Positions 1 to 16,942 of a stretch of 64,000 bases of DNA are shown here, piece after piece. The stretch's first letter is position 1, and each line of letters starts with the position of its first letter. The position numbers were made by a program, and so were the translations under genes. The notes beneath the pieces are model-generated. The model had not been told where the DNA came from and ran no database searches. It was given only the letters and a program-made list of their open reading frames with translations. The stretch spans positions 1,120,001-1,184,000 of the forward strand of contig CAWDVR010000001.1 of the NCBI GenBank assembly GCA_963805975.1, given 5' to 3'. Origin of the DNA: an uncultured Acidobacteriota bacterium (GTDB lineage: Bacteria; Acidobacteriota; Thermoanaerobaculia; Multivoradales; SZUA-115).

Positions 1-1205
1 ATCGAACAGCGCCCGGTCGTAGATCCACAGGCCGCGCAGCCCGTCGCCCTCCGGCCAGACGTGGAGCTCGAGGTCGAACCGCGTCCAGCGCACCTCAGGG
101 ACCACCCGCGAGATCGCCACCTCCGCCGCCGGCAGCGTCGGGCTGGGCGGCATCTGGTACGCGAACACCACCTGGAAGAACGGGTTGCGGGAGAGGCTGC
201 GAGCCGGGGCCAGCTCCTCGACCAGCTTGTCGAAGCCGAGATCCTGGTGGGCGTAGGCGCCGAGGGCGGCGGACTTCACCCGCTCGATGAGTCGGCTGAA
301 CGTGGGCTCACCGGTGAGATCGCCCACCATCACCAGGCTGTTGACGAAGAGACCGATCAGGTCCTCGATCTCGAGCCGGTCGCGCCCCGCGACCGGCGAA
401 CCGACCGCCACTCGCTCCTGCCCGCCGGCCCGCGCCAGCCAGGCGAGGAAGGCCGCGAGGAGGGTCATCGCCGGCGTCGCGCCGGCGCGCCGCCCGAGGG
501 CGCGGAGGGGGCCGAAGAGGTCCGGCGGCAGATCGGCGTCACAGCTCGCGCCCTGGTACGCGGGATGCGTCGGCCGCGCCCGGTCGGTCGCGAGACCGAG
601 CGGCGGCAGCTCGCCGAGCGCCTGGCGCCAGAACTCGAGGTGGGGAGCGATCGCCTCCCCGTGCTGCCATTGCCGCTGCCAGACCGCGTAGTCGGCATAG
701 CGGGCCGGCAGCTCGGCGAGACGCGGCGGACGGCCTTCGCAGCCCGCGGCGTAGAGCTCCGCGATCTCGCGGTGCAGGATGGCGAGAGAGGTGCCGTCCG
801 AGACGATGTGGTGGTGGGTGAGGAGGAGATGATGCTCGCTCGCCCCGAGGCGGAGCAGCCACGGCCGGAAGAGGGGGCCTCGCACAAGGTCGAAAGACCG
901 CTCCGCCTCCTGACGGGCGAGCTGGCGCGCCGCTGCCAGGCGCTTGCCCCCAGCGAGCCCGGCGAGATCGACGACCGGCAGGTCCAGGTGGCCGGGCGAC
1001 TGCACCACTTGGGCGGGCCGGCCGCCGGGGGCCGGGAAGACCGTGCGCAGGACATCGTGGCGGCGGACGATCTCCCGCAGAGCCAGGCCGAGCCCCCGCG
1101 GATCCAGCTCGCCCTGCAGCTCGAGGGCGAACGGGGTGTTGTAGAACGGGTTGTCCGGCACCAGCTGCTGCAGGAACCACAGGCGCTGCTGGGCGAACGA
1201 AAGGG
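1..1205 (-). other. NRPS module 4 condensation domain (LCL-type), continues out of window
   Basis: PLSFAQQRLWFLQQLVPDNPFYN..RHDVLRT..THHHIVSDGTS..IGLFVNSLVM..NPFFQV. Confidence 0.85.
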
Positions 1206-4200
1206 GGGCCGCGGCACCATGGCTCGCCGGACCGGCGAGGCCAGCCACCAGCGGTGGCGGCGGTGATCCATGATCGCGGGCGAGGGCCGCCTGGAGGCAG
1301 CGGGCGACCCCGGCGACCGTCGGCGCCGCGAACACGTCGGCGAGCGGCAGCTCGACCTGGAAGACGTCGCGCAAGCGGGCGAGGGCGCGGGCGAAGAGCA
1401 GCGAATGGGCCCCGAGGTCGAAGAAGTCGTCGGCGACGCCGAGCCGGGAGACGCCGAGGGTCTCGCTCCAGATCTCGACCAGGATCTCCTCGAGGCCGCT
1501 CCTGGGAGCGAGGAGGCCGGCCGCCGGCCGCTCAGCGGCGTCTTGCCGCGCGGAGCTGCCGGCGCGGAACACCTCTGCGGTCCGCAGCGCCAGGGCGGTG
1601 CGGTCCACCTTGCCGTGGCGGGTGAGCGGCAGAGCGTCGAGGAAGACGAAGAACGAAGGCACCAGGTGGGCGGGCAGCAGGCGTCCGAGGCGCCGGCGGA
1701 GGAGGGCGGCGTCGAGCTCGTCCTCCGAGCCCGGCGCGCGCACCACATAGGCCACGAGATGGCGGTCCTCGTCCGCCATCTCGTGCACCACCACTGCCGC
1801 TTGCGCGACACCCGGCTGGGCCGCCAGGGTCACCTCGACCTCGCCCGGCTCGACGCGGAAGCCGCGGACCTTCACCTGCTGGTCGAGCCGGCCGAGGAAC
1901 TCCAAGGTGCCGTCGGCGCGGAAGCGGGCGCGGTCGCCGCTGCGATAGAGCCGGCCGGGACCCAGAGGGTCGGGCACGAAACGCTCCGCCGTCCAGCCGG
2001 GCCGGGCGAAGTAGCCGCGGGCGAGGCCGCTTCCGCCGATGCACAGCTCGCCGGGAACGCCGATCGGCACCGGGCGGCCACGGCGGTCGAGCAGCACGAC
2101 GCGGGTATCGCCGATCGGCCGGCCGATCGGGATGGGCTGGTCGGGGTCGCCCCCGCCCGGTCCCGTCATCGCGTGACAGGCGGCGAAGGTGGTGCTCTCG
2201 GTCGGGCCGTAGCCGTTGACCAGCCGGGTGCCCGGCAGAGCCGCGAGGGCGGCTCGCACGTGCGCGGGCGAAAGCACGTCGCCGCCCGCCAGAAGCTCCT
2301 CGACGCCCGCCAGGGCCGGCAGCTCCGAGTCGACCATCTGGTGAAAGAGCCCCGCGGTCAGCCACAGGCGGTTGACCCGGTGCCGCACGATCGCCGCCCC
2401 GATCTCGGCGAGGGACAGCCGGCCGGCCGGCGGCAGCACCAGCCGGCCGCCTTGCAGCAAGGTACCCCAGATCTCCAGGGTGGCGGCGTCGAAGGCGGTC
2501 GGCGCGAGCTGCAGGAAGACGGCCCGGGAGGAGAGCGTCATGAACCCGCCGTGCCGCACCAGCCGCACCACGCCGCGATGGGGCACGGCGACCCCCTTGG
2601 GCTCGCCGGTCGAGCCGGATGTGAACATCACGTAGGCGAGGTGATCCTCCGTCGTCGCCGTGACCGGCGGCGTGCCGGGCTGCCTGGCGAGGAGCGGATC
2701 GTCGAGGTCGACGTGCGGGCCGTGATCCGCGATGGCCAGGTCCGCGCCGGCAGTCAGACGCGCGGACCTCTCGCCGAGCACGAGCCCGCCCGGCGGTACG
2801 ACGAGGCGGAGCATGCGAGCGAGGCGCTCCGGCGGGGAGGCGGGATCGAGGGGCACGTAGGCGCCACCCGCCGCGACGACGCCGAGGAAAGCGGTGATCG
2901 CGGCGGGCGATCGCTCGCGGCAGACCGCGACCGGCGTGTCCGGGCCGACGCCGAGCTGCCGCAGGCGGTGGGCGAGCCGGTGGGCGCGTAGCGCGAGGCC
3001 CTGGTAGCTCAGCAGCTCGCCTTCGCCGTCCACGGCGATGGCTTCCGGCCGTGCCGCCGCCTGCTCGGCAAACAGCTCGTGGAGGGTGCCCGCGACGGGC
3101 TGGGAGGGGGCCTTGTCGCTCCACTCGAGGGTCAGCTGCTGGCGCTCGGCGGCCGACAAGGGCAGGAGACGATCGGGCTCGGCGAGCGGCCGGGACACCA
3201 TCTCGGCCAGGGCCGCGACGTGGTAGCCCAGCCAGCGGGCGATCGCCGTCGCCTCGAACCGGCCGGCGTCGTAGCGCAGGTCGAGGACGATCTCGCCGCT
3301 CGTCGGGTCGAGGTGGACGTTGACGATCAGCGGCAGGTCGGTCGCTTCGTGGAACACCCCGCCGCGGATCCCGATGCCGCTGCCGGCAAGCTCCCGGTAG
3401 ACGTGGAAGTGGACGAAGTTGAACGCCACGCCGAACAGCGGGCGGCCACGGAGGCGGCGCAGTTCGGCGAGCGGGAAGCGGCGATGCGGGTGCTGCTCGC
3501 GCTCGGCTGCGGCGCAGCGCCGGACGAGGTCCAGCCAGGTGTCTCGCCCGGCCTCGAGGTGGAGCGAGGTCTCGACCTGGAACGGCAGGGTGTTGAGGAA
3601 GAGGCCGAGGACGCGGTCGCCGTCCGTGGTCTCCTGCCGGCCGTTCCACACCAGACCGGTGGTCGGACGGGAGGTGCCGCAGAGGGTGGCGAGGGCCTGC
3701 AGGTGGGCTGCCAGGAGGACGCTCTTGACCGGCGCTCCGGCCCGGGCGGCGACTGCCGGCACACCTGCCGCGACCGTCGCGGGGAGCGACCGGCGCAGCT
3801 GGCGCACGGCGGGTGGCCGCGACCGCTCCCGCGCGGCGAGCCCCCACGCGGTGAGACTGGGCAGCTCGGCCGGCTCGTCGGCGGTCGCGGCCAGCCAGAA
3901 GCGCCGGCTCGCGGTGGCGGCGAGGCTGCGGCCCTCGAGAGCGACGTAATCGCGGAAAGTGGCTCGCGGCGGTGCCGGCGCCAGCGAGCTCGCCCCGGTC
4001 GCCAGGGCCGACCAGGTGGCGAGCAGCTCGGTGAGCAGCGAGGCGACGCTCCAGCCGTCGAGGATCACGTGATGGAAGCTCAAGGCGAGCTGGAGGCAGG
4101 TAGCGCTGCGCAAGTGGACGTGGCAGCGCAGGAGCGGCGGCCGGCCGAGATCGAAGGGGCGCGCCTTCTCTCGCTCCACCCAGGCCAGGACGGCGGCCGT

Positions 4201-7200
4201 CTGGTCCGCAGGAGCGAGCCGCCGGAGGTCGGTCACCGCGAACGGCATGCGCGCCCGGCTGTGCACCCGTTGCAGCGGCTCGGCGAAGCGCGCGAGGTCG
4301 AACGAGCTGCGCAGCACCGCGTGGCGCTCGACGATCCGCTCCCAGGCCAGCACCAGCGCCGCGAGGGAGAGGCCTTCGACCGCGATCTCGTAGCTGAAGA
4401 CGTCGTGGTAGAGGCCGAGCCCGGGCGCGTCACCCGCCTTCGCCACCATTCCCCACTGCAAGCGAGTCAGGGGATAGGCGTCCTCGACGTCGCCTGGCAG
4501 GACGCGGCGCTCGGCGGCGCTCAGCAGAGCGAAGGGCAGACTGGGCTCCTCCTCGTGGGTGCCCCCGCCGGCCAGGCGCGCCAGCTCGCGCACGACGGGA
4601 TGCCGGAAGAGGTCTGCGACGGTGAAGGAGAGGCCGCGAGCCGCGGCGCGGGAACGTACCTGCAGGCTGTGGATCGAGTCCCCACCGAGGTCGAAGAAGC
4701 TGTCGCCAGCGCTCACCCGAGCCCGGCCCAGCACTTCGCCGAAGATCGCCGCGAGAGTTTCCTCGGCCTCGTTCGCGGCCGGCACGAAGGGCCGCTCGGC
4801 GGGCAGCTCTGATATGAGGGCGGGAGCCTGGCGGACGAGCGCTGCGCGATCGACCTTGCCGTGCAGGGTGAGGGGCAGGGCTGCGACCGCCAGGTAGGCG
4901 GCCGGCAGCATGGCCTCCGGCAGCAGGCGGCGCAGCGCCGCCCGCAGCTCGCTGGCCGGCGCTGCCGGGCCCGGCGCCTGGGGCACCACGAAGGCGATGA
5001 GCTGACTGCCGCTCTCCGCATGCGGGAGAGCGATCACCACCGCCTCGCCCACTCCCGGCTGCCGGCGCAGGGCGGCTTCGATCTCGCCGAGCTCGATGCG
5101 GTGGCCTCGAACCTTGACCTGGTTGTCACGCCGGCCGAGGTAGAGGAGGCTGCCGTCCGGGCGGTGGCGGGCGAGGTCGCCGCTGCGGTAGAGCCGCTCT
5201 CCGGGCAGGCCGGCGTGGCCATGGGGACGGAAGCGTGCGGCCGTCTCGGCGGGCCGGCCCCAATAACCGCGGGCGAGCCCGGCGCCACCGACCCAGATCT
5301 CCCCCGGTGTCCCGATCGGCACCGGCTCGCCCCGGCCGTCGAGGAGGTGGACCTCGAGGTCGGCGAGCGGGCGGCCGATCGGGCTGCCGCCGCCCGCGTG
5401 GAGCGGCTCGAGGGTCACGTGGACGGTGGTCTCGGTGATCCCATAGAGATTGAGCAGCCGGGGACGGGCGGTGCCGAAGCGGTCGAACCAGCTCGCCAGC
5501 GATCCGGCATCGAGCGCCTCGCCGCCGAAGATCACCCGCCGCAGCCGCCCGCTGCCCGCCGCCGCCGCGACGGCTACCTCCTGCAGGCCGCGGAAGGCGG
5601 AGGGCGTCTGGTTGAGCACCGTCACGCCCTCGCGCAGCAGCAAGCCGTGCAGCTCGTCCGGCACCCGGCCGACCGCCGGGGGCACCAAGACCAGCCGCCC
5701 GCCGTGGGCGAGCGGCCCCCAGATCTCCCACACCGAGAAGTCGAAAGTGTGGGCGTGGAACAGGCACCAGACGTCGTCCGGCCCGAACCCCACACCGTCG
5801 CGGGTGACGGCGAAGAGGCGCAGCAGATTGTGGTGGGAGACCGCCACCGCCTTCGGCCGGCCGGTCGAGCCCGAGGTGAAGATCACGTAGGCGATCTGCT
5901 CGCCGAGGATCGGCGGCGCCGCGAGCGCCTCCCCTGTCGTGCCCGCTGGGTCGTAGCCGTCGAGATCGATCGGCTCGACTCCCGGCGGTGGCTCGAGCGG
6001 CGAGGAGCCGTGGACGAGGAGGAGCGTGGCGCCCACCTCGCGCAGCATGCGGTGGGAGCGCTCCGGCGGGTGGGCCGGGTCGAGGGGAAGGTAGAAGCCG
6101 CCAGCCTCGAGGACGGCGAGGATCGCGACGATCAGAGCGGGCGAGCGCTCGAGCCCGAGGCCGACGGGCGTCTCCGTGGTCACCCCCAGCGCGCGGAGCC
6201 GGCGGGCGAGGTGGCTCGCCCGGCGTCGCAGCTCGCCGTAGGAGATCTGCTCGGCCCCGCCACCCAGCGCGCCGCCGACCAGGGCTACGGCATCCGGCTG
6301 CCGCTCCGCCACCCGGGCGAAGAGCTGGTGGATCGCCGTCACCGAGTCCGCGTCCCGAGCGCGCACCGCCGGGTTCCACTCGTGGAGGACCTGCTGCCGT
6401 TCGGCCGCGCTCCAGGGTAGGAAGCGCTCGTGCCTGGCCGCCGGGTCCGCCGCCATCGCCGCCAGGGTCCGCCGGTAGCACGCCGACCAGCGCTCGATCT
6501 CCGTGTCGTCGAACCGGCGGCGATCGTGAGCGAGGAAGAGCCCCGCCTGCCGGCCGTCGGGCTCGAGATGGAAGTTGAGCAGCAGGGGTAGATCAGTCGC
6601 CTCGACGAAACGACTGTCCAGGATCGCCAGCTCGCCCTCGTGCCGCGCGAGGTCGCGGTAGACGTAGTAGTGGAAGAAGTTGAACGCAGTGTCGAAGAGC
6701 GGCTGGCCGTCCCGCAGGCGGCGTATCTCGGCCATCGGATAGCGGCGGTGGGGCAGCACCTCGCGCTCGTGCGCGAGGGTTCGCCGGACGAGGTCCACCC
6801 AGCTGCCGGCCGAGAGGGACAACCGGAAAGGGACCGTGTTGAGGAAGAGGCCGAGAATGCGGTCGCCGTCCTCCTCCTCCGGACGGCCGTGAAGCACCAA
6901 CCCGGTGGTCACCCGCCCAGCGCCGCAGAGCCGGCCGAGGACCGCGAGGTGGGCGGCGAGGAGGACACTCTTGAGAGGCGCCTCCGCCTGGGCGGCGAGG
7001 CGGCGCAGGCCGGCGGTGATCTCCGGCGAGAAGGCGAGCGAACGCTGCTCGACCTCGCGTGGAGCGGCCGCTACCGGCGCAGTCCCGCCGGCCAGCCAGG
7101 GCGGAGCCTCGTCGGTCTCTCCCTGCCAGAAGACGCGGTGCTCCCCGGCGGCCAGAACCGCCTGCTCGAGGGCGACGAAATCCCGAAAGTGACCCTGCGG

Positions 7201-10200
7201 CGCGGCCGGCAGGGCTGCTAGCTCGTCCTGCCGGGCAAGATAGGTGGCGAGAAGCTCGGTGACCAGGGACGCCAGGCTCCAGCCGTCGAGGATGGCGTGA
7301 TGGAAGCTCAGAGTGAGCTGGAAACGGCCGTCTCCCCGCGGGTGCGCCTGGCAGCGCAGGAGGGGCGGCCGCGCGAGGTCGAACGGCCGTCGTTTCTCGC
7401 TCGCGATGGCAGCCGCGATCGCACTTTCCTGGGCGATGGCCGGCAGGCCACGCAGGTCGGTCACCGCCAGGGGCACCACGGCACGCCAGTGCACCCGTTG
7501 CAGCGGCTCGCCGAAGCTCCCGAGGTCGAAGGAGGTCCGCAGGGTCGGATGCCGGCGGACGACGACTTCGAGGCTCCGTCGCAGCCGCCGGGCATCGAAG
7601 TCGCCGCGCAGATGGTAGGTGAAGACGTCGTGGTAGAGGCCGGCCTCGCCCTCCGCCTCGCCGTGAAAGAGCATGCCGGCCTGGAGCCGGGTCAGGGGAT
7701 AGGCGTCCTCGACATCGGCCGGAAGTCGTTGCCGGACCTCGGCCGGGACGAGCGCGAAGGGCCTCGGGCGAGGGACGGTACCGCCAGGAACCGCCTCGCC
7801 CGCCAGCTGGGCGAGATCCGCGATCACCGGATGGCGGAAGATCTGCTCCAGGGTGAGCGCGAGCCCGACCGCCGCGGCGCGCGCGCGGATCTGCAGGCCG
7901 CGGATCGAGTCCCCACCGAGATCGAAGAAGCTGTCGAGGACGCCCACCTCCCGGTGCCCCAGGACCGCCGCGAAGATCTCCGCCAGCCGCTTCTCGGCCG
8001 GCGTTTCCGGCGCCTGGTACGGCCGGCCCCGGCGGGCTGCCGCATGAGCCTCGCCGCCACGGAGCGCATGGTGGGCGAGGGCGGCACGGTCGAGCTTGCC
8101 ATTCACCGTCAGCGGCATGGCGGCCAGCACCACGAAGCTCGCCGGGATCATCGACGGCGGCAGGATCGCGGCGAGGTGGCGGCGCAGGGCCGGAGCGCTG
8201 AGGGCCGGATTCAAGATGCCGGAGGACGCTCCGGACGCCGGGTCCGCCGGTGTCACGACCGCGACGAGCCGGGCCGGCTCGTCGCGGTCCCGGTGGACCA
8301 GGACGGCGGCTTCCCCGACCGCCGGGCAGCGGGCGAGGGCGGCCTCGACCTCGCCGGTCTCGATGCGGAAGCCGCGGATCTTCACCTGCTGGTCGGTGCG
8401 GCCGAGGTACTCCAGACGGCCATCCGCCCGGCGGCGGGCGAGGTCGCCGCTGCGGTAGAGCCGGGCGCCGGCGTCCCGACTCCAGGGATGGGGCAGGAAG
8501 CGGCTGGCGGACTCGGCGGGCCGCTGCCAATAGCCACGGGCGAGCCCGGCGCCCCCGACGTGGATCTCCCCGGTGACCCCCAACCCTACCGGCTCGCCGC
8601 GGCGATCGAGGAGGTAGGTCTCCCAGGCCGGCAGGGGCCGGCCGATCGGACTCGCCGGGGAGCAGCTCTCTATCTCCGGGCGGCCGATCCGCTGGCAGGT
8701 CACGTGGACCGTGGTCTCGGTGATGCCGTAGAGATTGAAGAGCCGCGGCTCACGATCGCCGAAGCGCTCGATCCATGGCCGCAGGCTTTCTGGCGTCAGG
8801 GCCTCGCCGCCGAAGACGATCTGCCGGAGCGGCGGCTGGGCCGGAGCCGTGAGGGCCACGTCTTGGTAGCTGCGAAACGCCGACGGGGTCTGGCTGAGCA
8901 CCGTCACTCTTTCGCGCGTGAGCAGCCCGTGGAGCTCCTCCGGCTCGCGGCTCACCCAATAGGGGACCACGACGAGCCGGCCCCCCTGCGCGAGCGCTCC
9001 CCAGAGCTCCCACACCGAGAAGTCGAAGCTCATCGCATGGAAGAAGCTCCAGACGTCGTCGCGACCGAAGCCCACGTGGGCCTGGGACTCCGCCAAGAGG
9101 CGGACGACGCTCGCGTGGGTGACCGCGACGCCCTTGGGCCAGCCCGTCGAGCCCGAGGTGTAGAGCAGGTAGGCGAGTCGCTGCGGCAGCTCCGGCGTCA
9201 GGTCCCAGGGCTGGGCCGCGGTGGCGATCACCGGTTCGCGGCCCAGCTCCGGCGCCAGGTCCATGGGGAAGGAGCCGTCCGTCACCAGCGCGACCGGCGC
9301 GGCGTCGGCGAGCACCCACGCCAGGCGCTCGCGGGGCAGCTCGGGGTCGAGAGGCACGTAGAAACCGCCAGCGGCGAGGATGCCGAGGATCCCCGCCACC
9401 ATCTCTTCGCCGCGGCCAGCGCAGAGGGCAACCGCTTTCTCCTCCGCCACGCCTGCAGCGCGGAGCCGGCCGGCGAGGTTCCAGGCCTGCCGTGCGAGCT
9501 CGCCGTAGCTCAGCTGGCGGCCGTCGCAGACGACGGCCACGGCATCCGGTCGCTCGCTCACCCGGGCCGCGAAAAGCGCATCGAGAGTCCCTCCCGCGGT
9601 GGAGCTGCCCGGCTCGTGCTCCTCGTGGATGAGCTGGTGCCGCTCGGCGCGCGCCATGAGCGGCAGGCTCCCCACGGCCTGGCTCGGGTCCGCCACCACG
9701 CCCGCGAGGAGCCTCTCGAGCTGTCGCGCCCAGCGCTCGATCGTGGTGTGGTCGAAGAGGTCGCTGCGATACTCGAAGACCAAGCGGAGACCGTCCCCGA
9801 TCCGCGCCGTCTGCACGACGAGATCGAAGGGGCTGTGGTCGCGCGGCAGGATGTCCCCCTCCATGCGCACCTCGCCGTCCGCACCAGGACGCAGGAGGCG
9901 ATGCTGCACCATCACCACAGAGTAGAGGTTGGCGAGGGCCGAGATCCCTGGGCGGGCAATCAGCCCGCCGACCAGCTCGTTGGGAAAGTCCTGATGCCGG
10001 GCGAGGGCCGCGACGGCCGTGCTCAGTCGCCCGAGACTGTCCAGGAAGGGCTGGCCGGCGGACCAGTGAGTCGGCAGAGGCAGCGTGTTGGCGAAGTAGC
10101 CCAAGACGCGCTCGTGGAGCCCCTCGGGATGGGAGCGGCCGTGGAAAGGCACTCCGAGAATTACTTCGCGCTCGCCTGAAACACGGTGGAGAAACGCCGC

Positions 10201-11025
10201 GAAAGAGGCCAGCAGGACCCGAAAGAGACTCGTCTCGCTCTGCCGCTTCAGCTCTTCGAGGCCAGCCACCAGCGTCGGTCGCAGCTGCCACTCGACATCT
10301 GCCGCCGCACCGACCGGGGTTGCCGGGCGAGCTCGGTCCGTCGGCAGCGCGAGCTGCGTGGGCGATGAGCCCAGGGTCTCGCGGAAGAACCGGGCATGGG
10401 CCTCATAGGTGTCGCTGCCGATCGCGAGCCGCTCCCGTTGCCAGGCGGTGAAGCTCGGGTAGGGGAGCCCAGGCTCGAGCTCACCGCCGTGATAAATCGC
10501 CGACAGATCCTCCACGAAGATCTGGGCCGCCGTGGCATCCATGACGAGATGGTGGGCGAGCAGCAGCAGGCGGTGCTCCAGTGCGGAGAGCCGGAGCAGG
10601 AGGAAGCGGTAAAGCGGCCCGGCTTCGAGGTCGAACGGCTGGCGCAAGGGAGCCAAGAGGCAGGCGGAGATGGCCCGAGAGCCTGGCGACCGAGGAAGGC
10701 AGGAGAAGTCGACACAGGGGCAGCGAAGCGGGGGCGTGGCTTCGACCCGCTGGACCGGATCGCCCGCGATCGGCTCGAAAACGAGGCGGAGGGCCTCGTG
10801 GTGCTGGACGAGCCGGCGAAGCGCCTGGATCAACCGGCCCGGAGCGAGCGGACCGCTCAGCCGGATGCTGTAGCCGAGGTTGTAGAGGGACGTCCCCGGC
10901 GCGAGCTGCTCCATGGCCCAGAGAGCTGTCTGGCCATAGGAGAGAGAGACGGCCTCACGCCTGGACGACGTCCCCATCGTTCCATTCCGTGCACCGCGAG
11001 CCCCAGGCTTCCCGCGCGCTCCCAT
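1..11025 (-). CDS. Multimodular non-ribosomal peptide synthetase, 3'-partial (>3,675 aa): C-A-T-C-A-T-C-A-T-C...
   Basis: ATG at 11025 (alternative 10977). Absent from the ORF track, consistent with no in-frame stop before base 1; the long + strand shadow ORFs all sit in one antisense frame. Manual translation gives C motifs HHLVMDA (~10545), HHAILDG (~7295), HHVILDG (~4065), HHIVSDG (~805); A3 motifs YLLYTSGSTGWPKG, YVIFTSGSTGRPKA, YVMFTSGSTGEPKG; PCP motifs FFDLGGDSI (~7915, ~4685) and FFDLGAHSL (~1410). Confidence 0.95.
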   Translation of the reverse strand, partial: MGARGKPGARGARNGTMGTSSRREAVSLSYGQTALWAMEQLAPGTSLYNLGYSIRLSGPLAPGRLIQALRRLVQHHEALRLVFEPIAGDPVQRVEATPPLRCPCVDFSCLPRSPGSRAISACLLAPLRQPFDLEAGPLYRFLLLRLSALEHRLLLLAHHLVMDATAAQIFVEDLSAIYHGGELEPGLPYPSFTAWQRERLAIGSDTYEAHARFFRETLGSSPTQLALPTDRARPATPVGAAADVEWQLRPTLVAGLEELKRQSETSLFRVLLASFAAFLHRVSGEREVILGVPFHGRSHPEGLHERVLGYFANTLPLPTHWSAGQPFLDSLGRLSTAVAALARHQDFPNELVGGLIARPGISALANLYSVVMVQHRLLRPGADGEVRMEGDILPRDHSPFDLVVQTARIGDGLRLVFEYRSDLFDHTTIERWARQLERLLAGVVADPSQAVGSLPLMARAERHQLIHEEHEPGSSTAGGTLDALFAARVSERPDAVAVVCDGRQLSYGELARQAWNLAGRLRAAGVAEEKAVALCAGRGEEMVAGILGILAAGGFYVPLDPELPRERLAWVLADAAPVALVTDGSFPMDLAPELGREPVIATAAQPWDLTPELPQRLAYLLYTSGSTGWPKGVAVTHASVVRLLAESQAHVGFGRDDVWSFFHAMSFDFSVWELWGALAQGGRLVVVPYWVSREPEELHGLLTRERVTVLSQTPSAFRSYQDVALTAPAQPPLRQIVFGGEALTPESLRPWIERFGDREPRLFNLYGITETTVHVTCQRIGRPEIESCSPASPIGRPLPAWETYLLDRRGEPVGLGVTGEIHVGGAGLARGYWQRPAESASRFLPHPWSRDAGARLYRSGDLARRRADGRLEYLGRTDQQVKIRGFRIETGEVEAALARCPAVGEAAVLVHRDRDEPARLVAVVTPADPASGASSGILNPALSAPALRRHLAAILPPSMIPASFVVLAAMPLTVNGKLDRAALAHHALRGGEAHAAARRGRPYQAPETPAEKRLAEIFAAVLGHREVGVLDSFFDLGGDSIRGLQIRARAAAVGLALTLEQIFRHPVIADLAQLAGEAVPGGTVPRPRPFALVPAEVRQRLPADVEDAYPLTRLQAGMLFHGEAEGEAGLYHDVFTYHLRGDFDARRLRRSLEVVVRRHPTLRTSFDLGSFGEPLQRVHWRAVVPLAVTDLRGLPAIAQESAIAAAIASEKRRPFDLARPPLLRCQAHPRGDGRFQLTLSFHHAILDGWSLASLVTELLATYLARQDELAALPAAPQGHFRDFVALEQAVLAAGEHRVFWQGETDEAPPWLAGGTAPVAAAPREVEQRSLAFSPEITAGLRRLAAQAEAPLKSVLLAAHLAVLGRLCGAGRVTTGLVLHGRPEEEDGDRILGLFLNTVPFRLSLSAGSWVDLVRRTLAHEREVLPHRRYPMAEIRRLRDGQPLFDTAFNFFHYYVYRDLARHEGELAILDSRFVEATDLPLLLNFHLEPDGRQAGLFLAHDRRRFDDTEIERWSACYRRTLAAMAADPAARHERFLPWSAAERQQVLHEWNPAVRARDADSVTAIHQLFARVAERQPDAVALVGGALGGGAEQISYGELRRRASHLARRLRALGVTTETPVGLGLERSPALIVAILAVLEAGGFYLPLDPAHPPERSHRMLREVGATLLLVHGSSPLEPPPGVEPIDLDGYDPAGTTGEALAAPPILGEQIAYVIFTSGSTGRPKAVAVSHHNLLRLFAVTRDGVGFGPDDVWCLFHAHTFDFSVWEIWGPLAHGGRLVLVPPAVGRVPDELHGLLLREGVTVLNQTPSAFRGLQEVAVAAAAGSGRLRRVIFGGEALDAGSLASWFDRFGTARPRLLNLYGITETTVHVTLEPLHAGGGSPIGRPLADLEVHLLDGRGEPVPIGTPGEIWVGGAGLARGYWGRPAETAARFRPHGHAGLPGERLYRSGDLARHRPDGSLLYLGRRDNQVKVRGHRIELGEIEAALRRQPGVGEAVVIALPHAESGSQLIAFVVPQAPGPAAPASELRAALRRLLPEAMLPAAYLAVAALPLTLHGKVDRAALVRQAPALISELPAERPFVPAANEAEETLAAIFGEVLGRARVSAGDSFFDLGGDSIHSLQVRSRAAARGLSFTVADLFRHPVVRELARLAGGGTHEEEPSLPFALLSAAERRVLPGDVEDAYPLTRLQWGMVAKAGDAPGLGLYHDVFSYEIAVEGLSLAALVLAWERIVERHAVLRSSFDLARFAEPLQRVHSRARMPFAVTDLRRLAPADQTAAVLAWVEREKARPFDLGRPPLLRCHVHLRSATCLQLALSFHHVILDGWSVASLLTELLATWSALATGASSLAPAPPRATFRDYVALEGRSLAATASRRFWLAATADEPAELPSLTAWGLAARERSRPPAVRQLRRSLPATVAAGVPAVAARAGAPVKSVLLAAHLQALATLCGTSRPTTGLVWNGRQETTDGDRVLGLFLNTLPFQVETSLHLEAGRDTWLDLVRRCAAAEREQHPHRRFPLAELRRLRGRPLFGVAFNFVHFHVYRELAGSGIGIRGGVFHEATDLPLIVNVHLDPTSGEIVLDLRYDAGRFEATAIARWLGYHVAALAEMVSRPLAEPDRLLPLSAAERQQLTLEWSDKAPSQPVAGTLHELFAEQAAARPEAIAVDGEGELLSYQGLALRAHRLAHRLRQLGVGPDTPVAVCRERSPAAITAFLGVVAAGGAYVPLDPASPPERLARMLRLVVPPGGLVLGERSARLTAGADLAIADHGPHVDLDDPLLARQPGTPPVTATTEDHLAYVMFTSGSTGEPKGVAVPHRGVVRLVRHGGFMTLSSRAVFLQLAPTAFDAATLEIWGTLLQGGRLVLPPAGRLSLAEIGAAIVRHRVNRLWLTAGLFHQMVDSELPALAGVEELLAGGDVLSPAHVRAALAALPGTRLVNGYGPTESTTFAACHAMTGPGGGDPDQPIPIGRPIGDTRVVLLDRRGRPVPIGVPGELCIGGSGLARGYFARPGWTAERFVPDPLGPGRLYRSGDRARFRADGTLEFLGRLDQQVKVRGFRVEPGEVEVTLAAQPGVAQAAVVVHEMADEDRHLVAYVVRAPGSEDELDAALLRRRLGRLLPAHLVPSFFVFLDALPLTRHGKVDRTALALRTAEVFRAGSSARQDAAERPAAGLLAPRSGLEEILVEIWSETLGVSRLGVADDFFDLGAHSLLFARALARLRDVFQVELPLADVFAAPTVAGVARCLQAALARDHGSPPPPLVAGLAGPASHGAAAPLSFAQQRLWFLQQLVPDNPFYNTPFALELQGELDPRGLGLALREIVRRHDVLRTVFPAPGGRPAQVVQSPGHLDLPVVDLAGLAGGKRLAAARQLARQEAERSFDLVRGPLFRPWLLRLGASEHHLLLTHHHIVSDGTSLAILHREIAELYAAGCEGRPPRLAELPARYADYAVWQRQWQHGEAIAPHLEFWRQALGELPPLGLATDRARPTHPAYQGASCDADLPPDLFGPLRALGRRAGATPAMTLLAAFLAWLARAGGQERVAVGSPVAGRDRLEIEDLIGLFVNSLVMVGDLTGEPTFSRLIERVKSAALGAYAHQDLGFDKLVEELAPARSLSRNPFFQVVFAYQMPPSPTLPAAEVAISRVVPEVRWTRFDLELHVWPEGDGLRGLWIYDRALFD
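1290..4490 (-). other. NRPS module 3: modAA-like C, Val-type A domain, PCP (GAHSL)
   Basis: DAYPLTRLQWGMV..YHDVF..EPLQRVH..SFHHVILDGWS..FNFVHFHVY. A core FDAATLE/LWLTAG/LLAGGD/NGYGPTESTTFA gives code DALWLGGTFK (Val/aliphatic). Confidence 0.8.
4580..7710 (-). other. NRPS module 2: modAA-like (dehydrating) C, Thr-type A domain, PCP (GGDSI)
   Basis: DAYPLTRLQAGMLFH..YHDVF..EPLQRVH..SFHHAILDGWS..FNFFHYYVY; A code DFWNIGLVHK. Boundaries approximate. Confidence 0.8.
7800..10950 (-). other. NRPS module 1: N-terminal (starter-position) C, Thr-type A domain, PCP (GGDSI)
   Basis: LSYGQTALW..YNL, HHLVMDA. A-domain core FDFSVWE/LSQTPS/IVFGGE/NLYGITETTVHVT gives specificity code DFWSVGLVHK, close to the Thr code DFWNIGMVHK. 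Boundaries approximate. Confidence 0.8.
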
Positions 11026-11040
11026 CCCCTGGCTTCGAGC

Positions 11041-12105
11041 CTACTTCGAGGCCCTGCGGGCCCGCTTGGGCGGGGCTTTCACTTCGGGCTCGAACCAGCC
11101 CACCGAGTCAAGCCAGGCCAGGGTGCCAGTCAACCAGGGTGGATTACCGGTTCCGCCGCCGGTGGCGATCGTCCGCAGCCGCTCCTTGATCACCTTGCCT
11201 GTGCCTTCCGGCGGCATCGTGCTGTCCTCGAGGTCGAAATCGAGCAACTCGCCGCCAAGCTTCATCGGCGGGTTCAGCCGCATGAAGTTCTCGCCGAGGA
11301 TCGACTTGCATTGGAAGTCGACCGCCATCATTCCGGACTCGAAGAAGGCTTCCACCAGGGCGAACGGCCGGCGCAGATCGAGCAACCACTGTTTCCATCC
11401 CCAGGGTGCGTTCTCCACGTTGAGACCTGAGCCCGTGAGGCCTGTGCCGACGGAGAGCAGCCGGATCTCGGTCGGTCTCATCGGCTCTCCCTTGCCTCCA
11501 AGCGGGGTGCTCAATGCCTGGGCGAGCGCGCACATGCTCGGGTTGTTGGCGTAGAGCCCGCCGTCGACGAAGCCCTGGTAGATCGGGAAGAAAATCGGTC
11601 CGGCGCTCGTCCGCAAGGCGACGTCGAGGGCCGACTGGCCGAGGTCGGGCTCCCCCTTGCCGCCGAAGTTGTTGAACACTTTCGGCTTCCAGGTCGGCAC
11701 GCCACCCTTCGCCTCGCCCATCAGATCGAAGGTCGGGATCACTACGTACTGCCCTTGCGCAGCCAGGCTGCCGAGGGTGTTCGTGCCCAGCAGGGGAGTG
11801 AGGCTGTCCTTCAGGTAAGCATTGCTGCTGATCGAGAACCAGCCGCTGATCGTCGCGAAGAGCGAGCGCAGGGGCCTTCCGGCGCTCGGGCTCTGCGACC
11901 ACAACGAGATCGACTGCTGCAGGCCGGACGCCCGGTCGGCTGCCGTCATCATAAGCAACGCGTTGATCCCGCCGGCGGAGGTGCCGGCAAAGGCGTCCAC
12001 TTGGGCTAGGAACTCGGGCCTCTTGCGCTGGATCTGCTCGATCGCGTAGAGGGAAAAGAGTGAAAGGATTCCTCCGCCGTCCATTGCCAGGATGTTGAAG
12101 GCCAT
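11041..12105 (-). CDS. Patatin-like phospholipase/acyl hydrolase
   Basis: MDGGG glycine block, GTSAG nucleophile elbow, SAGPIFF, VDGGLYANNP catalytic Asp motif. RBS AAAGGGAG. Stop lies about 15 bp before the NRPS ATG. Confidence 0.9.
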   Translation of the reverse strand: MAFNILAMDGGGILSLFSLYAIEQIQRKRPEFLAQVDAFAGTSAGGINALLMMTAADRASGLQQSISLWSQSPSAGRPLRSLFATISGWFSISSNAYLKDSLTPLLGTNTLGSLAAQGQYVVIPTFDLMGEAKGGVPTWKPKVFNNFGGKGEPDLGQSALDVALRTSAGPIFFPIYQGFVDGGLYANNPSMCALAQALSTPLGGKGEPMRPTEIRLLSVGTGLTGSGLNVENAPWGWKQWLLDLRRPFALVEAFFESGMMAVDFQCKSILGENFMRLNPPMKLGGELLDFDLEDSTMPPEGTGKVIKERLRTIATGGGTGNPPWLTGTLAWLDSVGWFEPEVKAPPKRARRASK

Positions 12106-12220
12106 GGTCTGGTTCTCCCTTTCTGCCGGTGAAAAACCTTCGCCGTGAACACAATTTCCCTGACCGAGCCTGCGAAGGGGCTCGTAAGCTCGAGCTCACA
12201 CGGTCCCTTGCACAAGCTTC

Positions 12221-12463
12221 CTACTCGACCTTGACCTTCTTTGAAGCCGGCTGCGGCTTCGCCTCCGCCGCCAGGTTGTCGATCGCGGCCTGGACGACCG
12301 AGGTATAGCCCTGGAGGATCGTGAGCCCCGCCTGCAGATAGGCGGCACGCAAGGTCTTGCTGGCGCTCGTTAAATCCGCGGTCTGCGGGGCGAGCTTGGA
12401 GAGCTCGGCGATCTGCTGCATCACGGTGCCAAGAATGTCGCTCGGACCACCCACCTGGCTCAT
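12221..12463 (-). CDS. 80-aa amphipathic helical protein with C-terminal KKVKVE tail
   Basis: Strong RBS GAGGAGGAG, 12 bp after the arsA-like stop; GC3-biased codons; periodic hydrophobic pattern with no TM segment. Confidence 0.8.
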   Translation of the reverse strand: MSQVGGPSDILGTVMQQIAELSKLAPQTADLTSASKTLRAAYLQAGLTILQGYTSVVQAAIDNLAAEAKPQPASKKVKVE

Positions 12464-12475
12464 GGTGCTCCTCCT

Positions 12476-13651
12476 CTACTTGAAGTCGATGCTCAGCTCG
12501 TTGCCTTCCATCCGGGCCTGCGTCGTCTTGAATTGGGCCAGGGAGCGCGGCAGGGCAACGTGGCGCTTGAAGCTGGAGATACGGACAATCAGCTCGTGCT
12601 CGTTACGCGTTAGGACAATCTCGTCCTTTTCGACGAAAGGCAGGACCATTTTCAGCCGGTAGATGCCATCCGCCTTTTCGAAACTGAACGGCGGAGCGTC
12701 GACCTGCCGTGCCGCCGGATCCTGGTCGCCGAACAGGACTCGTCCGACCTCGGCCAAGCGATCGATGCCCACCACCTCGTCGCCGAACAGAGGCACCCTG
12801 GAGACCGGGATCGGGTCGAAGTACTTCTCGATCTGAGCGGCGTAGTTCGCGTGGGTGCCCACCCAGCCCGCGAGGTATCCCTCGGCCGAGCTGATCAAGC
12901 GATTGATGATCACGCCGTCCGTATTCATACCGTACATGCAGAAGTACGTGTAGGCTCTCTGTGTCTCACGGACAACCATCTTCTCGGCGTTGGTCACCAG
13001 GCGCACCGAGGTGACCTCCGGGTCCTTCAGCAGCTCGTCGATCCCTTCGAGCCGCCCGAAGGCGTTCTTCAGCGAGTCGAAGTAGCTGTCCTGTGGCAAG
13101 GGATAGTCGATGAGCTTGCTGGCGATCGGACGCGCCACCTTCAGAATCGCGCGATCCGTCTTGAATCGCTTGCGAACATACCAGTCAATCGATGTCATCA
13201 GATTGACGAAGCGCAACGATTCGCTAGTCGGTGGACAATCGACGACGATCAAGTCGTAAGTATCTTCGCGGTAATGCTGATTGATCGCCATCAACGCGAT
13301 CAGATCCTCCATACCGGGCATGATGGCCACTTCCTCGGCTACGATGCCACTCATCCCCATGGAGGAGAAAAAAGCCCCGATGTAGTGATAGAGGTCTCCC
13401 CATTGCCGCTCGATCTGCTCTTGAACGTCGACCTCCTGAAGGTCGAGGTTTTCCGCCATGCGCAACGGAAGGCCCCCATGCTGATCGAACAGGCTGCAAT
13501 CGAGGTTGAAGGAATCCGAGAGACTGTGAGCGAGATCGAAAGAAAGGACGAGGGTTCGATGGCCCCTTCGGGCCGCAGCAACGGCTGTCGCCGCAGCGAT
13601 CGTGGTCTTGCCGACACCCCCCTTGCCGGAGACGAGGATCACGCGCTTCAC
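12476..13651 (-). CDS. ArsA/TRC40/Get3-family ATPase with C-terminal HSP20-like (alpha-crystallin) domain, Get3d-like
   Basis: Deviant Walker A GKGGVGKTT, DLAHSLSDS, PGMED, DCPPT (DTAPT equivalent), EKMVVRET. Single ATPase domain plus beta-rich tail YRLKMVLPFVEKDEIVLTRNEHELIVRISSFKRHVALP..ARMEGNELSIDF. Confidence 0.9.
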   Translation of the reverse strand: MKRVILVSGKGGVGKTTIAAATAVAAARRGHRTLVLSFDLAHSLSDSFNLDCSLFDQHGGLPLRMAENLDLQEVDVQEQIERQWGDLYHYIGAFFSSMGMSGIVAEEVAIMPGMEDLIALMAINQHYREDTYDLIVVDCPPTSESLRFVNLMTSIDWYVRKRFKTDRAILKVARPIASKLIDYPLPQDSYFDSLKNAFGRLEGIDELLKDPEVTSVRLVTNAEKMVVRETQRAYTYFCMYGMNTDGVIINRLISSAEGYLAGWVGTHANYAAQIEKYFDPIPVSRVPLFGDEVVGIDRLAEVGRVLFGDQDPAARQVDAPPFSFEKADGIYRLKMVLPFVEKDEIVLTRNEHELIVRISSFKRHVALPRSLAQFKTTQARMEGNELSIDFK

Positions 13652-14047
13652 GACAACTCGCTCTGCATAGCTTTACCTCGTGCGCAAAGATCTCTAGAGG
13701 GCCAGCAAGATACGCCTCAGCCGAAGCTTCCACGGATTGCAACTTGCTCGACTGCGAGTATAGAGGGATGTCGTCAGCGTGCGCAAGAGTAAATCTACCT
13801 CTCAAGCCTTGTGCAGACACTGCTTACGACTTCTGGACATCGCTCTCGGAGACGTGTACAATTCTTGCCTGCGTATTTCGGCAAGACGTAGTAATGCACA
13901 GAGGCGTCGATGCCATACAACCGTCGGCCCTGACGGCGCTACTCTACGCCGCTCGCATAGCCTTCTCGCGGCATCGCCAAGTGCGCAGGGATGCATAAGA
14001 GGTGGGATCGATCCAATCTGTGCCAAATTAGCAACGGAGGCGAGGCC
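13652..14047. promoter_or_regulatory. Divergent promoter region of the island with a palindromic candidate operator
   Basis: About 400 bp, lower GC, between divergent genes. TCTTGCC-N10-GGCAAGA at 13863-13886; GTGCGCA recurs at ~13680, ~13779, ~13981. Confidence 0.4.
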
Positions 14048-14455
14048 ATGTCGCTGGAAGACCAACTCAAGGCGAAAGAAGAGGAATACTGGAAGTTGTG
14101 GGCGGATCTCGATCAGGCAGCGTTTCTCGACCTCTTCAGTGATCGCGTCCTCGCCTGGCCCAGCGGGTTGCCTTATCCGATGGGTAAAGATTGGTTCAAG
14201 CTTTGGACCAAGACGACCTTCGAGAACATCGAGCCCGGCACATTCAACTTCAAGCTCGGGCAGATGTACGTGCAGATGATCGATGACACGAGCGGGATCA
14301 TTTACTACGCATGGTCCTATGATGCCACCCTCAAAATGCCACCTGGCCCTCGTCATGCTTCCGGAACGCTCTCTCACACCTGGGTTCTGGAAGAAGACTG
14401 GGCGATCATTGGCGGGACCAGTCAGGCCAATCCGACTGTAACGAGCGCCCTGTGA
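14048..14455 (+). CDS. NTF2/SnoaL-like (DUF4440-type) small protein
   Basis: ATG 14048 after GGAGGCGAGG; alpha+beta pattern ending in HTWVLEEDWAIIGG, typical of NTF2-fold proteins. Confidence 0.7.
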   Translation: MSLEDQLKAKEEEYWKLWADLDQAAFLDLFSDRVLAWPSGLPYPMGKDWFKLWTKTTFENIEPGTFNFKLGQMYVQMIDDTSGIIYYAWSYDATLKMPPGPRHASGTLSHTWVLEEDWAIIGGTSQANPTVTSAL

Positions 14456-14523
14456 GTTTGGAGGCGAAATCTCATCAGTGCTATTTCTTGCGCTGACCGC
14501 CGAATTTGACGGAGGAGATCGAC

Positions 14524-16440
14524 ATGTACAGGATCACTCTGATCAACATGCCCTTCTCGAACCTGAGTCTGCCGAGCCTGGCTCTGACTCAGCTCAAGGC
14601 GGTCTTAGAGCGCGATCTCGATGACCAAATACGGGTGCGTATTCTTTATCTGAATCACGATTTCTCGCACTATCTCGGGCTCGATCTCTATTTCCGTATC
14701 ACGCATGCCGTCGAGTCGAACAACTCCGGGCTCGGTGACTGGTTGTTTCGTCAGGTCGCCTTTCCTCTCGCGAGCGACAACATCCAGCAATACTTCCAGC
14801 GTTACTATCCCCAGCAAGAAGGTGGTCTCGACGTTCTCAAGGGAAAGATCCTAGCCAAGCGGGTGCGTCTCGGACAGTTTCTCGATCGGCTGATCGGCAA
14901 CTATCAGCTGGATCAGGAGGATCTAGTCGGTTTTACTTCAATGTTCGCCCAGAACGTCGCAAGCTTGGCTATGGCGCGGAAGATCAAGGACCGGAATCCA
15001 CGATGCGTCACCGTTATGGGTGGCGCCAATTGCGAAGCACCGATGGGAGCCGAGCTCGCGGCTCACGTCGAAGCGATGGACTTCATCTTCTCCGGACCCG
15101 CGCTGGTGAGTTTTCCGCAATTCGTCCGTTATCAGATCCGTGGCGAAGTCGAGGCTTGTCGAACTCTGCAGGGTGTTTTTTGTGGCGCGAACCTCGGCTC
15201 CAAACACCTCGAGGGATCTGGGGCTATCGGGGCCGAGCTGCCGATGAACATCCCGGTGCCGCTCGACTATGACGAGTTTCTGGCGCTGTTTGAGAAGAAC
15301 TTTCCTGGTGGCGACCTTCGACCCTGTCTCACCTTCGAGACCTCGCGAGGTTGCTGGTGGGGAGAGCGTTCGCATTGTACGTTCTGTGGTCTCAACGGTG
15401 GCACGATGGCTTTCCGCCGGATGCCCGCCGACGACGCAGTGGAGCTGCTGAATGGGCTCTTCTTACGTTACGGAGATCGCTGTCCTCGCTACGAAGCAGT
15501 GGACAACATCATGCCGATCGATTACATCAAGGACGTTTTTCCTCGCCTGAAGCCACCCCCGGAAGCCACGATCTTTTACGAGATCAAAGCCAACATGAAA
15601 GAGGAAGAGCTGGAGATCCTGAAGCGGGGTGGAGTCAACGAGGTCCAGCCCGGCATCGAGTCTCTTTCGACTTCCACCTTGAAGCTTATGCGGAAGGGCA
15701 CCACGAGCTTCCAGAACATTCGTTTCCTGAAAGGTTGCCTATCCGCCAACGTACGGCCGATCTGGAATCTTTTGATCGGTTTTCCCGGGGAGGAAGCTGG
15801 TGTATACGAGAAGTATCTAGCGGACCTTCCGCTACTCTTTCATCTGATGCCGCCGACCGGTGCCTTTCCCGTTCGTTTCGATCGCTATAGCCCATACTTC
15901 ACCCACTCGGATAGCTTCCGGCTAAAGCTCTCACCCTATGATTTCTACGAGATGGTTTACCCCTTCGGAACCGACTCGCTCTACAACCTTGCCTATTACT
16001 TCGAAGACCGGAACTACAACGCGAGATATATTGATAACCTGATCCTGTGGAAAGAGAAGCTCAACACGGTTGTCGATCAATGGCGTGCGCTGTGGAAGTC
16101 CGACAGCGTGCTTCCGAAGCCCGAGCTGTATCTCAAGCTGGCCGCTGACTCGTGCCCTGCCGTGGTCTTCGATTCACGAAACGGCCAGAGTGGAACGGAG
16201 CACGAGATCAGCGATCTAGGCCTCCGAGTCCTCGATCTGCTTCACGTCCGAGGGATGAGGCTGACGGATCTCGAGAGGTCCGTCGATGCGACTCCGGATG
16301 ACCTTGCGGGGGAGATCGACGGACTGCGTCGATCGGGGATCCTTTTCGAGGAGGATGGTCGCTGGATGAGCCTGGTTATCGACCGTGCGTCGCAGCTCGG
16401 ACGGATGGAGAGCTATCAGTCGCTGCCGACTCTGGTTTGA
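14524..16440 (+). CDS. B12-dependent radical SAM C-methyltransferase, RiPP-maturation (PoyB/PoyC-like) type
   Basis: LINMPF..PSLAL start, B12-binding GFTSMFAQ..MGGANC, Cx7Cx2C motif ETSRGCWWGERSHCTFCGLNG, QPGIES, WNLLIGFPGE, RFDRYSPY. RBS GGAGGAG before ATG 14524. Confidence 0.9.
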   Translation: MYRITLINMPFSNLSLPSLALTQLKAVLERDLDDQIRVRILYLNHDFSHYLGLDLYFRITHAVESNNSGLGDWLFRQVAFPLASDNIQQYFQRYYPQQEGGLDVLKGKILAKRVRLGQFLDRLIGNYQLDQEDLVGFTSMFAQNVASLAMARKIKDRNPRCVTVMGGANCEAPMGAELAAHVEAMDFIFSGPALVSFPQFVRYQIRGEVEACRTLQGVFCGANLGSKHLEGSGAIGAELPMNIPVPLDYDEFLALFEKNFPGGDLRPCLTFETSRGCWWGERSHCTFCGLNGGTMAFRRMPADDAVELLNGLFLRYGDRCPRYEAVDNIMPIDYIKDVFPRLKPPPEATIFYEIKANMKEEELEILKRGGVNEVQPGIESLSTSTLKLMRKGTTSFQNIRFLKGCLSANVRPIWNLLIGFPGEEAGVYEKYLADLPLLFHLMPPTGAFPVRFDRYSPYFTHSDSFRLKLSPYDFYEMVYPFGTDSLYNLAYYFEDRNYNARYIDNLILWKEKLNTVVDQWRALWKSDSVLPKPELYLKLAADSCPAVVFDSRNGQSGTEHEISDLGLRVLDLLHVRGMRLTDLERSVDATPDDLAGEIDGLRRSGILFEEDGRWMSLVIDRASQLGRMESYQSLPTLV

Positions 16441-16907
16441 GGCTCCGTTCGTCATCGCCGTGCTGCGCTCGGTTCCCCAGGCCCTCGAACCGCTTCACGG
16501 CCCAACTCGCAGCACTCGAGCGAAGCAAAGAGCGCTTGATCGAGGTGTACGTCTTCCAGCAGGTCATCGACGAAGGGACCTTCCGCTCCCACCTCGTAAG
16601 CTGAATGAGGACATAGCTTTAGCCAAGGCTCATGCTGCAGAGATCGAGACCGAGCCGACTGATCTCGAATCGCTCTGGGAGTTTGGTGAGCATGTAGCGA
16701 CTCACGCCGGCAGCCTCTGGCAGGAGGCTCCGCTCGAACAGAAAACTGAGCCTCCAAAGGTTGATTTCCTGACAGGACATTACGTACGGCACGGAGGGAT
16801 TTCAAACAGCGCCAACCAGCCTAATTTTCAACGACTTACGTGGGCCGAAGGACGTAAAAACGGCGATGGTATCCCCAACGGGATTCGAACCCGTGTTATC
16901 GCCTTGA
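16441..16907 (+). pseudogene. C-terminal remnant of a large serine recombinase/integrase overlapping the tRNA 3' half
   Basis: Joined frames read RFTAQLAALERSKERLIEVYVFQQVIDEGTFRSHL/KLNEDIALAK..DLESLWEFGEHVATHAGSLWQEAPLEQK/LSLQRLIS*QDITYGTEGFQTAPTSLIFNDL..MVSPTGFEPVLSP*. Frameshifts at ~16596 and ~16745, TGA at 16770. Family assigned from recalled similarity. Confidence 0.7.
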
Positions 16908-16942
16908 AAGGGCGGTGTCCTAGGCCTCTAGACGATGGGGAC
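16867..16942 (-). tRNA. tRNA-Glu (anticodon TTC)
   Basis: GTCCCCATCGTCTAGAGGCCTAGGACACCGCCCTTTCAAGGCGATAACACGGGTTCGAATCCCGTTGGGGATACCA: 76 nt, cloverleaf, GTTCGAATC T-loop, encoded CCA. Confidence 0.97.

Follow-up and report, generated by a model that had tools for sequence, protein, structure and literature searches.

A gene for an 80-aa protein that ends in KKVKVE adjoins a gene for an ATPase that has an alpha-crystallin domain (aCD), raising the question of whether the tail of the first protein is an address tag read by the crystallin domain of the second. IXI tails of small heat-shock proteins bind the β4–β8 groove of the aCD (PMC4823740, PMC6212398), and the groove also binds an IXI motif in trans, as provided by BAG3 (PMC6212398, PMC8047445). 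In Get3d, the aCD occupies the Get4 site and is dispensable for capture of tail-anchored proteins, and the role of the aCD and the natural partners of Get3d-type ATPases are stated to be open questions (PMC10248533); the term 'IxI' has 0 occurrences in the main text of that paper. Here, we address the question using the window, meaning the whole 64,000-nt stretch of DNA that was analysed, and related loci.

The 80-aa protein is encoded by a real gene and has a tail beyond chance

12221..12463, (−) strand: predicted 80-aa partner protein, with helices at residues 7–23 and 33–68, a Pro/Ala spacer, and C-terminal KKVKVE
12221..12241, (−) strand: codons of the K-K-V-K-V-E tail (putative IxI/V-type tag) and stop
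12470..12475, (−) strand: Shine-Dalgarno sequence AGGAGG, directly after the ATPase stop codon

Translation of 12221–12463 on the (−) strand yields the protein described in the original prediction, with both of the helical segments quoted there, the Pro/Ala spacer AEAKPQPAS, and the terminus KKVKVE. The gene starts 12 nt past the ATPase stop, has a GC content of 0.62/0.44/0.86 by codon position, and has the best coding score among ORFs downstream of the ATPase. In a contig ~90% identical over 11900–13790, all 8 listed indel sites fall outside the 80-aa ORF and the ATPase ORF. The Shine-Dalgarno sequence, start position, codon-position GC, coding score, and indel sites establish that the ORF is a real gene, and the position of AGGAGG right behind the ATPase stop suggests that the ATPase and 80-aa genes are translationally coupled.

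An AlphaFold2 model of the 80-aa protein comprises helices at residues 7–23 and 33–68 and an extended, free tail. Both helices had been predicted to be amphipathic; helix 1 is amphipathic beyond shuffled sequences (p = 0.015), whereas helix 2, over the 27 residues quoted, does not differ significantly from shuffles (p = 0.17). The protein has no transmembrane helix (maximum 19-residue hydropathy 1.02; charged C-terminus). In AEAKPQPASKKVKVE, a basic, Pro-rich spacer leads to [IV]x[IVL] close to the C-terminus, as in the tails of 21 small heat-shock proteins. In the genome, 6 of 6499 coding-like ORFs end in [KR][IV]x[IV][EDKQS]$, and the only ones of ≤200 aa are the 80-aa protein and the single HSP20 match; by this comparison of ORF ends, the tail is beyond chance.

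Searches with the protein returned no Pfam family at E 0.1 or better, no Foldseek match of its model in the PDB, only the protein itself in a word search, and no true homologue in a phmmer search of 1.84 billion proteins. The sole other phmmer match, a Listeria-Bacteroides repeat protein, was rejected as spurious, and NCBIfam matches to AAC(2')-Ib and ATP synthase c were far under the cut-off. The 80-aa chain, being helical and having 0 Pfam matches, contains no alpha-crystallin domain; the domain is on the neighbouring gene.

The neighbouring gene encodes a Get3-fold ATPase with a C-terminal crystallin domain

12476..13651, (−) strand: 391-aa Get3/ArsA-fold ATPase with C-terminal aCD (PF02374, PF17886; TIGR00345 over cut-off)
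12482..12670, (−) strand: aCD, residues 328–390, without β6 loop and without an IxI tail of its own; K342, E344, I345, L347, A379, and M381 kept
12626..12628, (−) strand: Lys342 of the ATPase, candidate reader of the free C-terminus of the tag, from co-variation

The predicted crystallin-domain ATPase is borne out by Pfam matches to ArsA_ATPase (residues 3–306) and ArsA_HSP20 (residues 328–390) and by a TIGR00345 score of 211.9, over the cut-off of 135. Walker A, in its deviant form GKGGVGKTT, and switch I are intact, and the sequence contains no CXXC. As in Get3d (NosGet3d 8egk/3igf and AtGet3d 8elf; PMC10248533) and in aCD-bearing bacterial Get3 homologues of the Group 6 type (PMC6593721), a Get3 fold is followed by a C-terminal aCD that lacks β6. 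The monomer model matches NosGet3d 8egk_A in Foldseek with a TMq of 0.70 and ~22% identity, and the score with the NosAFP model NF050088 is 121.8 bits, below the curated cut-off of 325. The ATPase is thus not Get3d in the strict sense, and its originally proposed membership in the Get3d family holds only in the wide sense of a Get3/ArsA domain with a C-terminal aCD. No tagged partner is described, for Get3d or for Group 6-type Get3, in the parts of PMC10248533 and PMC6593721 drawn on here. The window ATPase subclade has SFDLAHSLSD and DCPPTSESLR at residues 37–46 and 138–147, which places Leu and Ser at sites that Get3/ArsA proteins usually fill with Pro and Gly.

The tail recurs beside crystallin-domain ATPases

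Loci were obtained from genomes, metagenomes, plasmid-database records, and viral contigs. After removal of duplicates, fragments, and the broken locus L098, and with 5 loci having <320 nt downstream and one unpublished genome also left out, 136 aCD-ATPase ORFs were kept; each member of a tandem has its own count, and related loci are not independent. The tail motif was fixed after L001–L117 had been seen, in a strict form ([IV]x[IVL] plus one residue) and a loose form (1–4 trailing residues).

The strict tail is present on a coding-like neighbour of 110 of the 136 aCD-ATPases (81%; L049 is a false positive and L195 a false negative), and specifically on the top-scoring downstream ORF of 102/136; the loose tail is present near 117/136. 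At 19/136 aCD-ATPases, the script detected no near-terminal motif nearby, implying that an aCD can persist without an adjacent partner. Beside 25 aCD-less ArsA-type ORFs, which as controls are far more distant ATPases, the strict tail is found 0 times and the looser form once. In sets fetched after the motif had been fixed, 29 of 32 Actinomycetota ATPases (2 of them seen earlier) and 22 of 23 in family f15 are tagged, the one miss in f15, L195, having a tail on inspection. Across 88 partner tails, from rows chosen for the pattern, position −4 is I (61) or V (27), position −2 is V (41), I (41), or L (6), and position −3 varies freely. The C-terminal motif is therefore kept beside aCD-ATPases, as the original prediction would have it, even as the small protein otherwise falls to ~20% identity. 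Its presence beside most related ATPases, and even on unrelated gene regulators (below), makes it likely that the tail is an address tag for the crystallin domain of the ATPase.

Loci L019, L020, L120, L048, L051, and L052 contain aCD-ATPases without a tagged neighbour. The viral contigs yielded one full-length aCD-ATPase locus (L232), at which no tag was found. The apparent tagged neighbour at L049, which we take to be an adenylylsulfate-kinase-like ORF, was rejected as a false positive, yet is counted as tagged in the 118/18 split used in the next section.

The groove is kept, and position 342 tracks C-terminal tails

When aligned with 21 small heat-shock proteins drawn from the same genome and phylum (L211, L212–L231), the ATPase aCD keeps the β4 and β8 groove positions and lacks the β6 loop, which corresponds to a 20-column gap. 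All 21 heat-shock proteins have the tail in cis. No tail follows β9 in any of the 9 ATPase aCDs in the alignment, and the strict motif occurs at the ATPase's own C-terminus in 1 of 120 close ATPases.

Two aCD positions, picked after scanning 74, vary with the presence of a tagged neighbour: Ala379 is kept in 118/118 ATPases with a tagged neighbour vs 12/18 without, and K/R342 is kept in 115/118 vs 5/18, with neither association significant after tree correction (10 independent pairs; median p = 0.0625 for K342 and p = 0.25 for A379). The position equivalent to 379 is Ala in 21/21 heat-shock proteins. The equivalent of position 342, a lysine before β4, is Lys in 5/5 heat-shock proteins with ≤2 residues after IxI, in 4/7 with 3 residues, and in 0/9 with ≥4 residues, in what is a small, related sample. 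Position 342 thus tracks tails that end at the C-terminus, suggesting that Lys342 may hold the carboxyl end of the tail. At L095 and L110, the chain of the partner homologue does not stop after a V-P-L motif but continues as a basic extension, and ATPase position 342 is Glu, possibly a compensatory change. All 6 ATPases without Ala379 are in the untagged group (one in L020, both in L120, and those in L048, L051, and L052).

The same groove raises the possibility that the tail addresses free small heat-shock proteins rather than the adjoining ATPase. The genome has one HSP20 gene, ending KPRKISVQ and having the same groove residues, and such grooves are promiscuous (PMC6212398). We nevertheless hold this to be very improbable: linkage of the tagged gene is to ATPases that have an aCD rather than to those that lack one, the residues of the ATPase aCD vary with tag presence, and the ATPase groove has no competing tail in cis.

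MarR regulators upstream of crystallin-domain ATPases have the same tail

At 6 loci (L046, L050, L118, L121, L313, and L314), a MarR regulator with the tail is encoded upstream of the aCD-ATPase. The tagged MarR ORFs with an IxI-E/D tail include the following:

L121:2349-2831
L046:401-901
L050:1997-2539
L313:4267-4947, (−) strand
L314:3937-4479, (−) strand

In Bacillus thuringiensis, the ATPase gene is located between genes for a MarR protein ending KMKNIPIE and a DUF3926 protein ending LKNIIIE, and L118, L046, and L050 are alike. Among 25 of the 34 MarR-family matches in the Bacillus record, the strict tail is present only on the ATPase-adjacent one. A Fusobacterium record has the strict tail in 1 of 5 MarR ORFs, a weak match that is not beside ATPases. 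In a search of 401 Actinomycetota genomes with MarR alone, the 2 matches both have the order MarR (tagged), ATPase, small partner (tagged), ATPase. The MarR proteins have a C-terminal helix at the same place before the tail as the conserved helix of the partner. With the same tail present on MarR proteins upstream of aCD-ATPases, the tag is portable. In the Fusobacterium tandem ATPase pair, which is of the same lineage, there is no tagged neighbour, and Ala379 and Lys342 are both lost.

These counts bear on the reading that chance or composition accounts for the tail, which would then play no part in docking. The loose motif ends 382 of 3027 background genome ORFs (12.6%), and the 80-aa protein has no detectable homologue, as this reading would allow. 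The strict form, in contrast, ends 43/3027 (1.4%) of the background ORFs vs 81% beside aCD-ATPases, and it ends 119 of the best 120 of 341 MarR homologues, which were retrieved with a query profile that contained the tail and were counted as proteins irrespective of gene context. The counts contradict a chance origin, to which we assign next to no probability.

The 80-aa protein belongs to the partner group by position and architecture

The partners share ~20% column identity and an HxxxAxxE helix core. The 80-aa protein has the plan of the group, being a small gene product adjoining the ATPase with one long helix, a spacer, and a terminal tag, and has Ala41 and Thr48 at the two near-invariant columns of the core (His and Glu). 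In a search of the 55,260 ORFs of the genome with a profile of the other partners, one row of which is from the unpublished genome G535, it comes 3rd, with E = 0.4. Given the missing His and Glu and this rank, we regard it as a positional and architectural member of the group, with likely homology to the other partners.

Two families of small proteins occur at the partner position: DUF3926 (PF13080), after the Bacillus ATPase, and DUF5304 (PF17230), matched by 6 of 61 partners. The 80-aa protein matches neither model. In the Atlas, a DUF3926 cluster is listed for it at 0.77, a lead only, with all scores <0.9.

In the Actinomycetota loci L122–L151, many partners have a CxxCP cluster ahead of the helix, and a conserved ~145-aa gene, presumably SRPBCC-like, is usually found upstream of the ATPase. 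We presume a possible link to mycobacterial Rv2183c/Rv2184c.

Proposed mechanism

The best explanation, to which we assign a probability of roughly 55%, is that the 80-aa protein is the ATPase's dedicated partner, with its tail docked on the aCD and helix 2 as a chamber placeholder. Specifically, the C-terminal K-V-K-V-E is predicted to dock in trans in the β4–β8 groove of the ATPase aCD, where the two valines would fill the groove pockets, the preceding lysine would, in the presumed geometry, meet acidic residue 344, and Lys342 would hold the free carboxyl end of the tag. Helix 2, long, weakly polar, and tethered in this manner, would sit in the presumed hydrophobic chamber of the ATPase dimer, an occupancy suggested by architecture; the placeholder would set the state of the ATPase and would be exchanged in the ATP cycle. 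The aCD site would also be contested by other tagged proteins, for example by the MarR regulator that shares the operon in other lineages. The original prediction had cast the 80-aa protein as a client, a status that finds no support, as the protein has no tail anchor, and an adaptor or regulator fits as well.

The tail might instead dock on the aCD with the helices outside the chamber, making the 80-aa protein a self-associating clamp of two aCDs, a dimer linker, or a client or lipid adaptor. The tail and groove evidence fits this arrangement equally. The tail of small heat-shock proteins links dimers into oligomers (PMC4823740), the aCD at the Get4 site could regulate the dimer (PMC10248533), and charged helices and Cys clusters, features that set them apart from membrane-type clients, are found in many of the partners. 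The conserved helix, however, is located a short spacer before the tail, as is the MarR helix, which suggests that a helix is presented to the ATPase, and we judge the outside arrangement rather unlikely. Summed over the placeholder and clamp or adaptor arrangements, docking of the tail on the ATPase aCD is probable.

More tentatively, and with less than even odds, crystallin-domain Get3 ATPases as a class could be tag-directed remodellers, a split-small-heat-shock-protein address-tag system that includes MarR feedback. In such a system, the aCD would read a free C-terminal K/R-I-x-I-E on unrelated proteins through a dedicated lysine, the helix before the tag would be fed into the ATPase chamber, and the small protein would set the load; the operon's MarR repressor would in some lineages be a tagged substrate, giving a chaperone-titration feedback loop.

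The predicted system resembles the IXI/V anchor of small heat-shock proteins (AgsA, MjHSP16.5, and Hsp27; PMC4823740, PMC6212398) in having a basic residue and then [IV]-x-[IV] after a Lys/Pro-rich spacer, and in that the ATPase aCD retains the groove residues that would receive the tail. It differs in that two genes supply tail and domain, the domain forms part of an ATPase and has no β6 loop, and the tail stops at the C-terminus or next to it. BAG3 and other IPV/IxI partners of human small heat-shock proteins (PMC6212398, PMC8047445) likewise present a non-crystallin IxI/V motif that is read in trans; the readers there are free heat-shock proteins in animals, whereas here the predicted reader is ATPase-fused and bacterial, and the motif is terminal. 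The IXI anchor, BAG3-type reading in trans, and aCD-bearing Get3 (PMC6593721) are thus already known. What is new, at the level of sequence comparison, is the tag on MarR proteins upstream of aCD-ATPases and the tracking of C-terminal tails by Lys342 in ATPases and heat-shock proteins; we found no published description of the tag or partner in the open-access literature searched.

Get3d-type ATPases range from bacteria to chloroplasts. A tag would name both a ligand and its site and would allow point mutations in either partner, and would thereby make the question of aCD function testable with two small proteins. A tag common to the small partner and the MarR regulator would also make substrates predictable from genome sequence alone.

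Genomic neighbourhood and origin

11041..12105, (−) strand: patatin-family hydrolase, third gene of the unit, without tag; a lineage-specific neighbour
1..11025, (−) strand: large NRPS running beyond the window edge, on the same strand immediately downstream; neighbouring context that may or may not belong to the system
16867..16942, (−) strand: tRNA-Glu, at the edge of the low-GC stretch (~11–17 kb) that holds the unit

The low-GC stretch extends from ~11000 to 16942, where it ends at the tRNA-Glu, and has a GC content of 0.54–0.66 vs ~0.70. The ATPase was found in 2 of 61 related genomes, the window's own counted, and in none of 7 further genomes from the same family, suggesting horizontal gain. 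In a FastTree tree, the ATPases of the window and of the second genome, G008, cluster with database entries that bear the names of Entotheonella, myxobacteria, and Azospirillum. In G008, the ATPase gene is followed by a 76-aa gene ending KINVS, a gene for a patatin 41% identical to that of the window, and then a PKS. On the basis of these two loci, the unit could possibly have a role in natural-product clusters.

The recurring order of ATPase, partner, and patatin in G008 is compatible with the 80-aa protein being genuine cargo: an amphipathic coat protein, akin to phasins or Csm proteins, that the ATPase would deliver to the lipid or polymer surface on which the patatin works. Helix 1 is amphipathic, helix 2 is less charged than in most partners, and lipid-like density co-purified with AtGet3d (PMC10248533). 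The kinship with phasins and Csm proteins raised in the original prediction, however, finds no counterpart in Pfam, where the 80-aa protein has 0 families at E 0.1, and the 96% complete genome has 0 matches to PHA synthase class I or III (TIGR01838, TIGR01836). Moreover, patatin linkage is established in just 2 genomes, with different neighbours elsewhere, and a MarR regulator is no coat protein. We consider delivery of a coat protein improbable.

In G008 (L152:12513-19809), the ATPase, partner, and patatin genes are followed by the PKS and a luciferase-like monooxygenase, at the place where the window has the large NRPS. The low-GC stretch of the window also contains a DUF4440-like gene (13991–14455) and a gene for a B12 radical SAM C-methyltransferase (14506–16440, TIGR03975), which is transcribed away from the ATPase.
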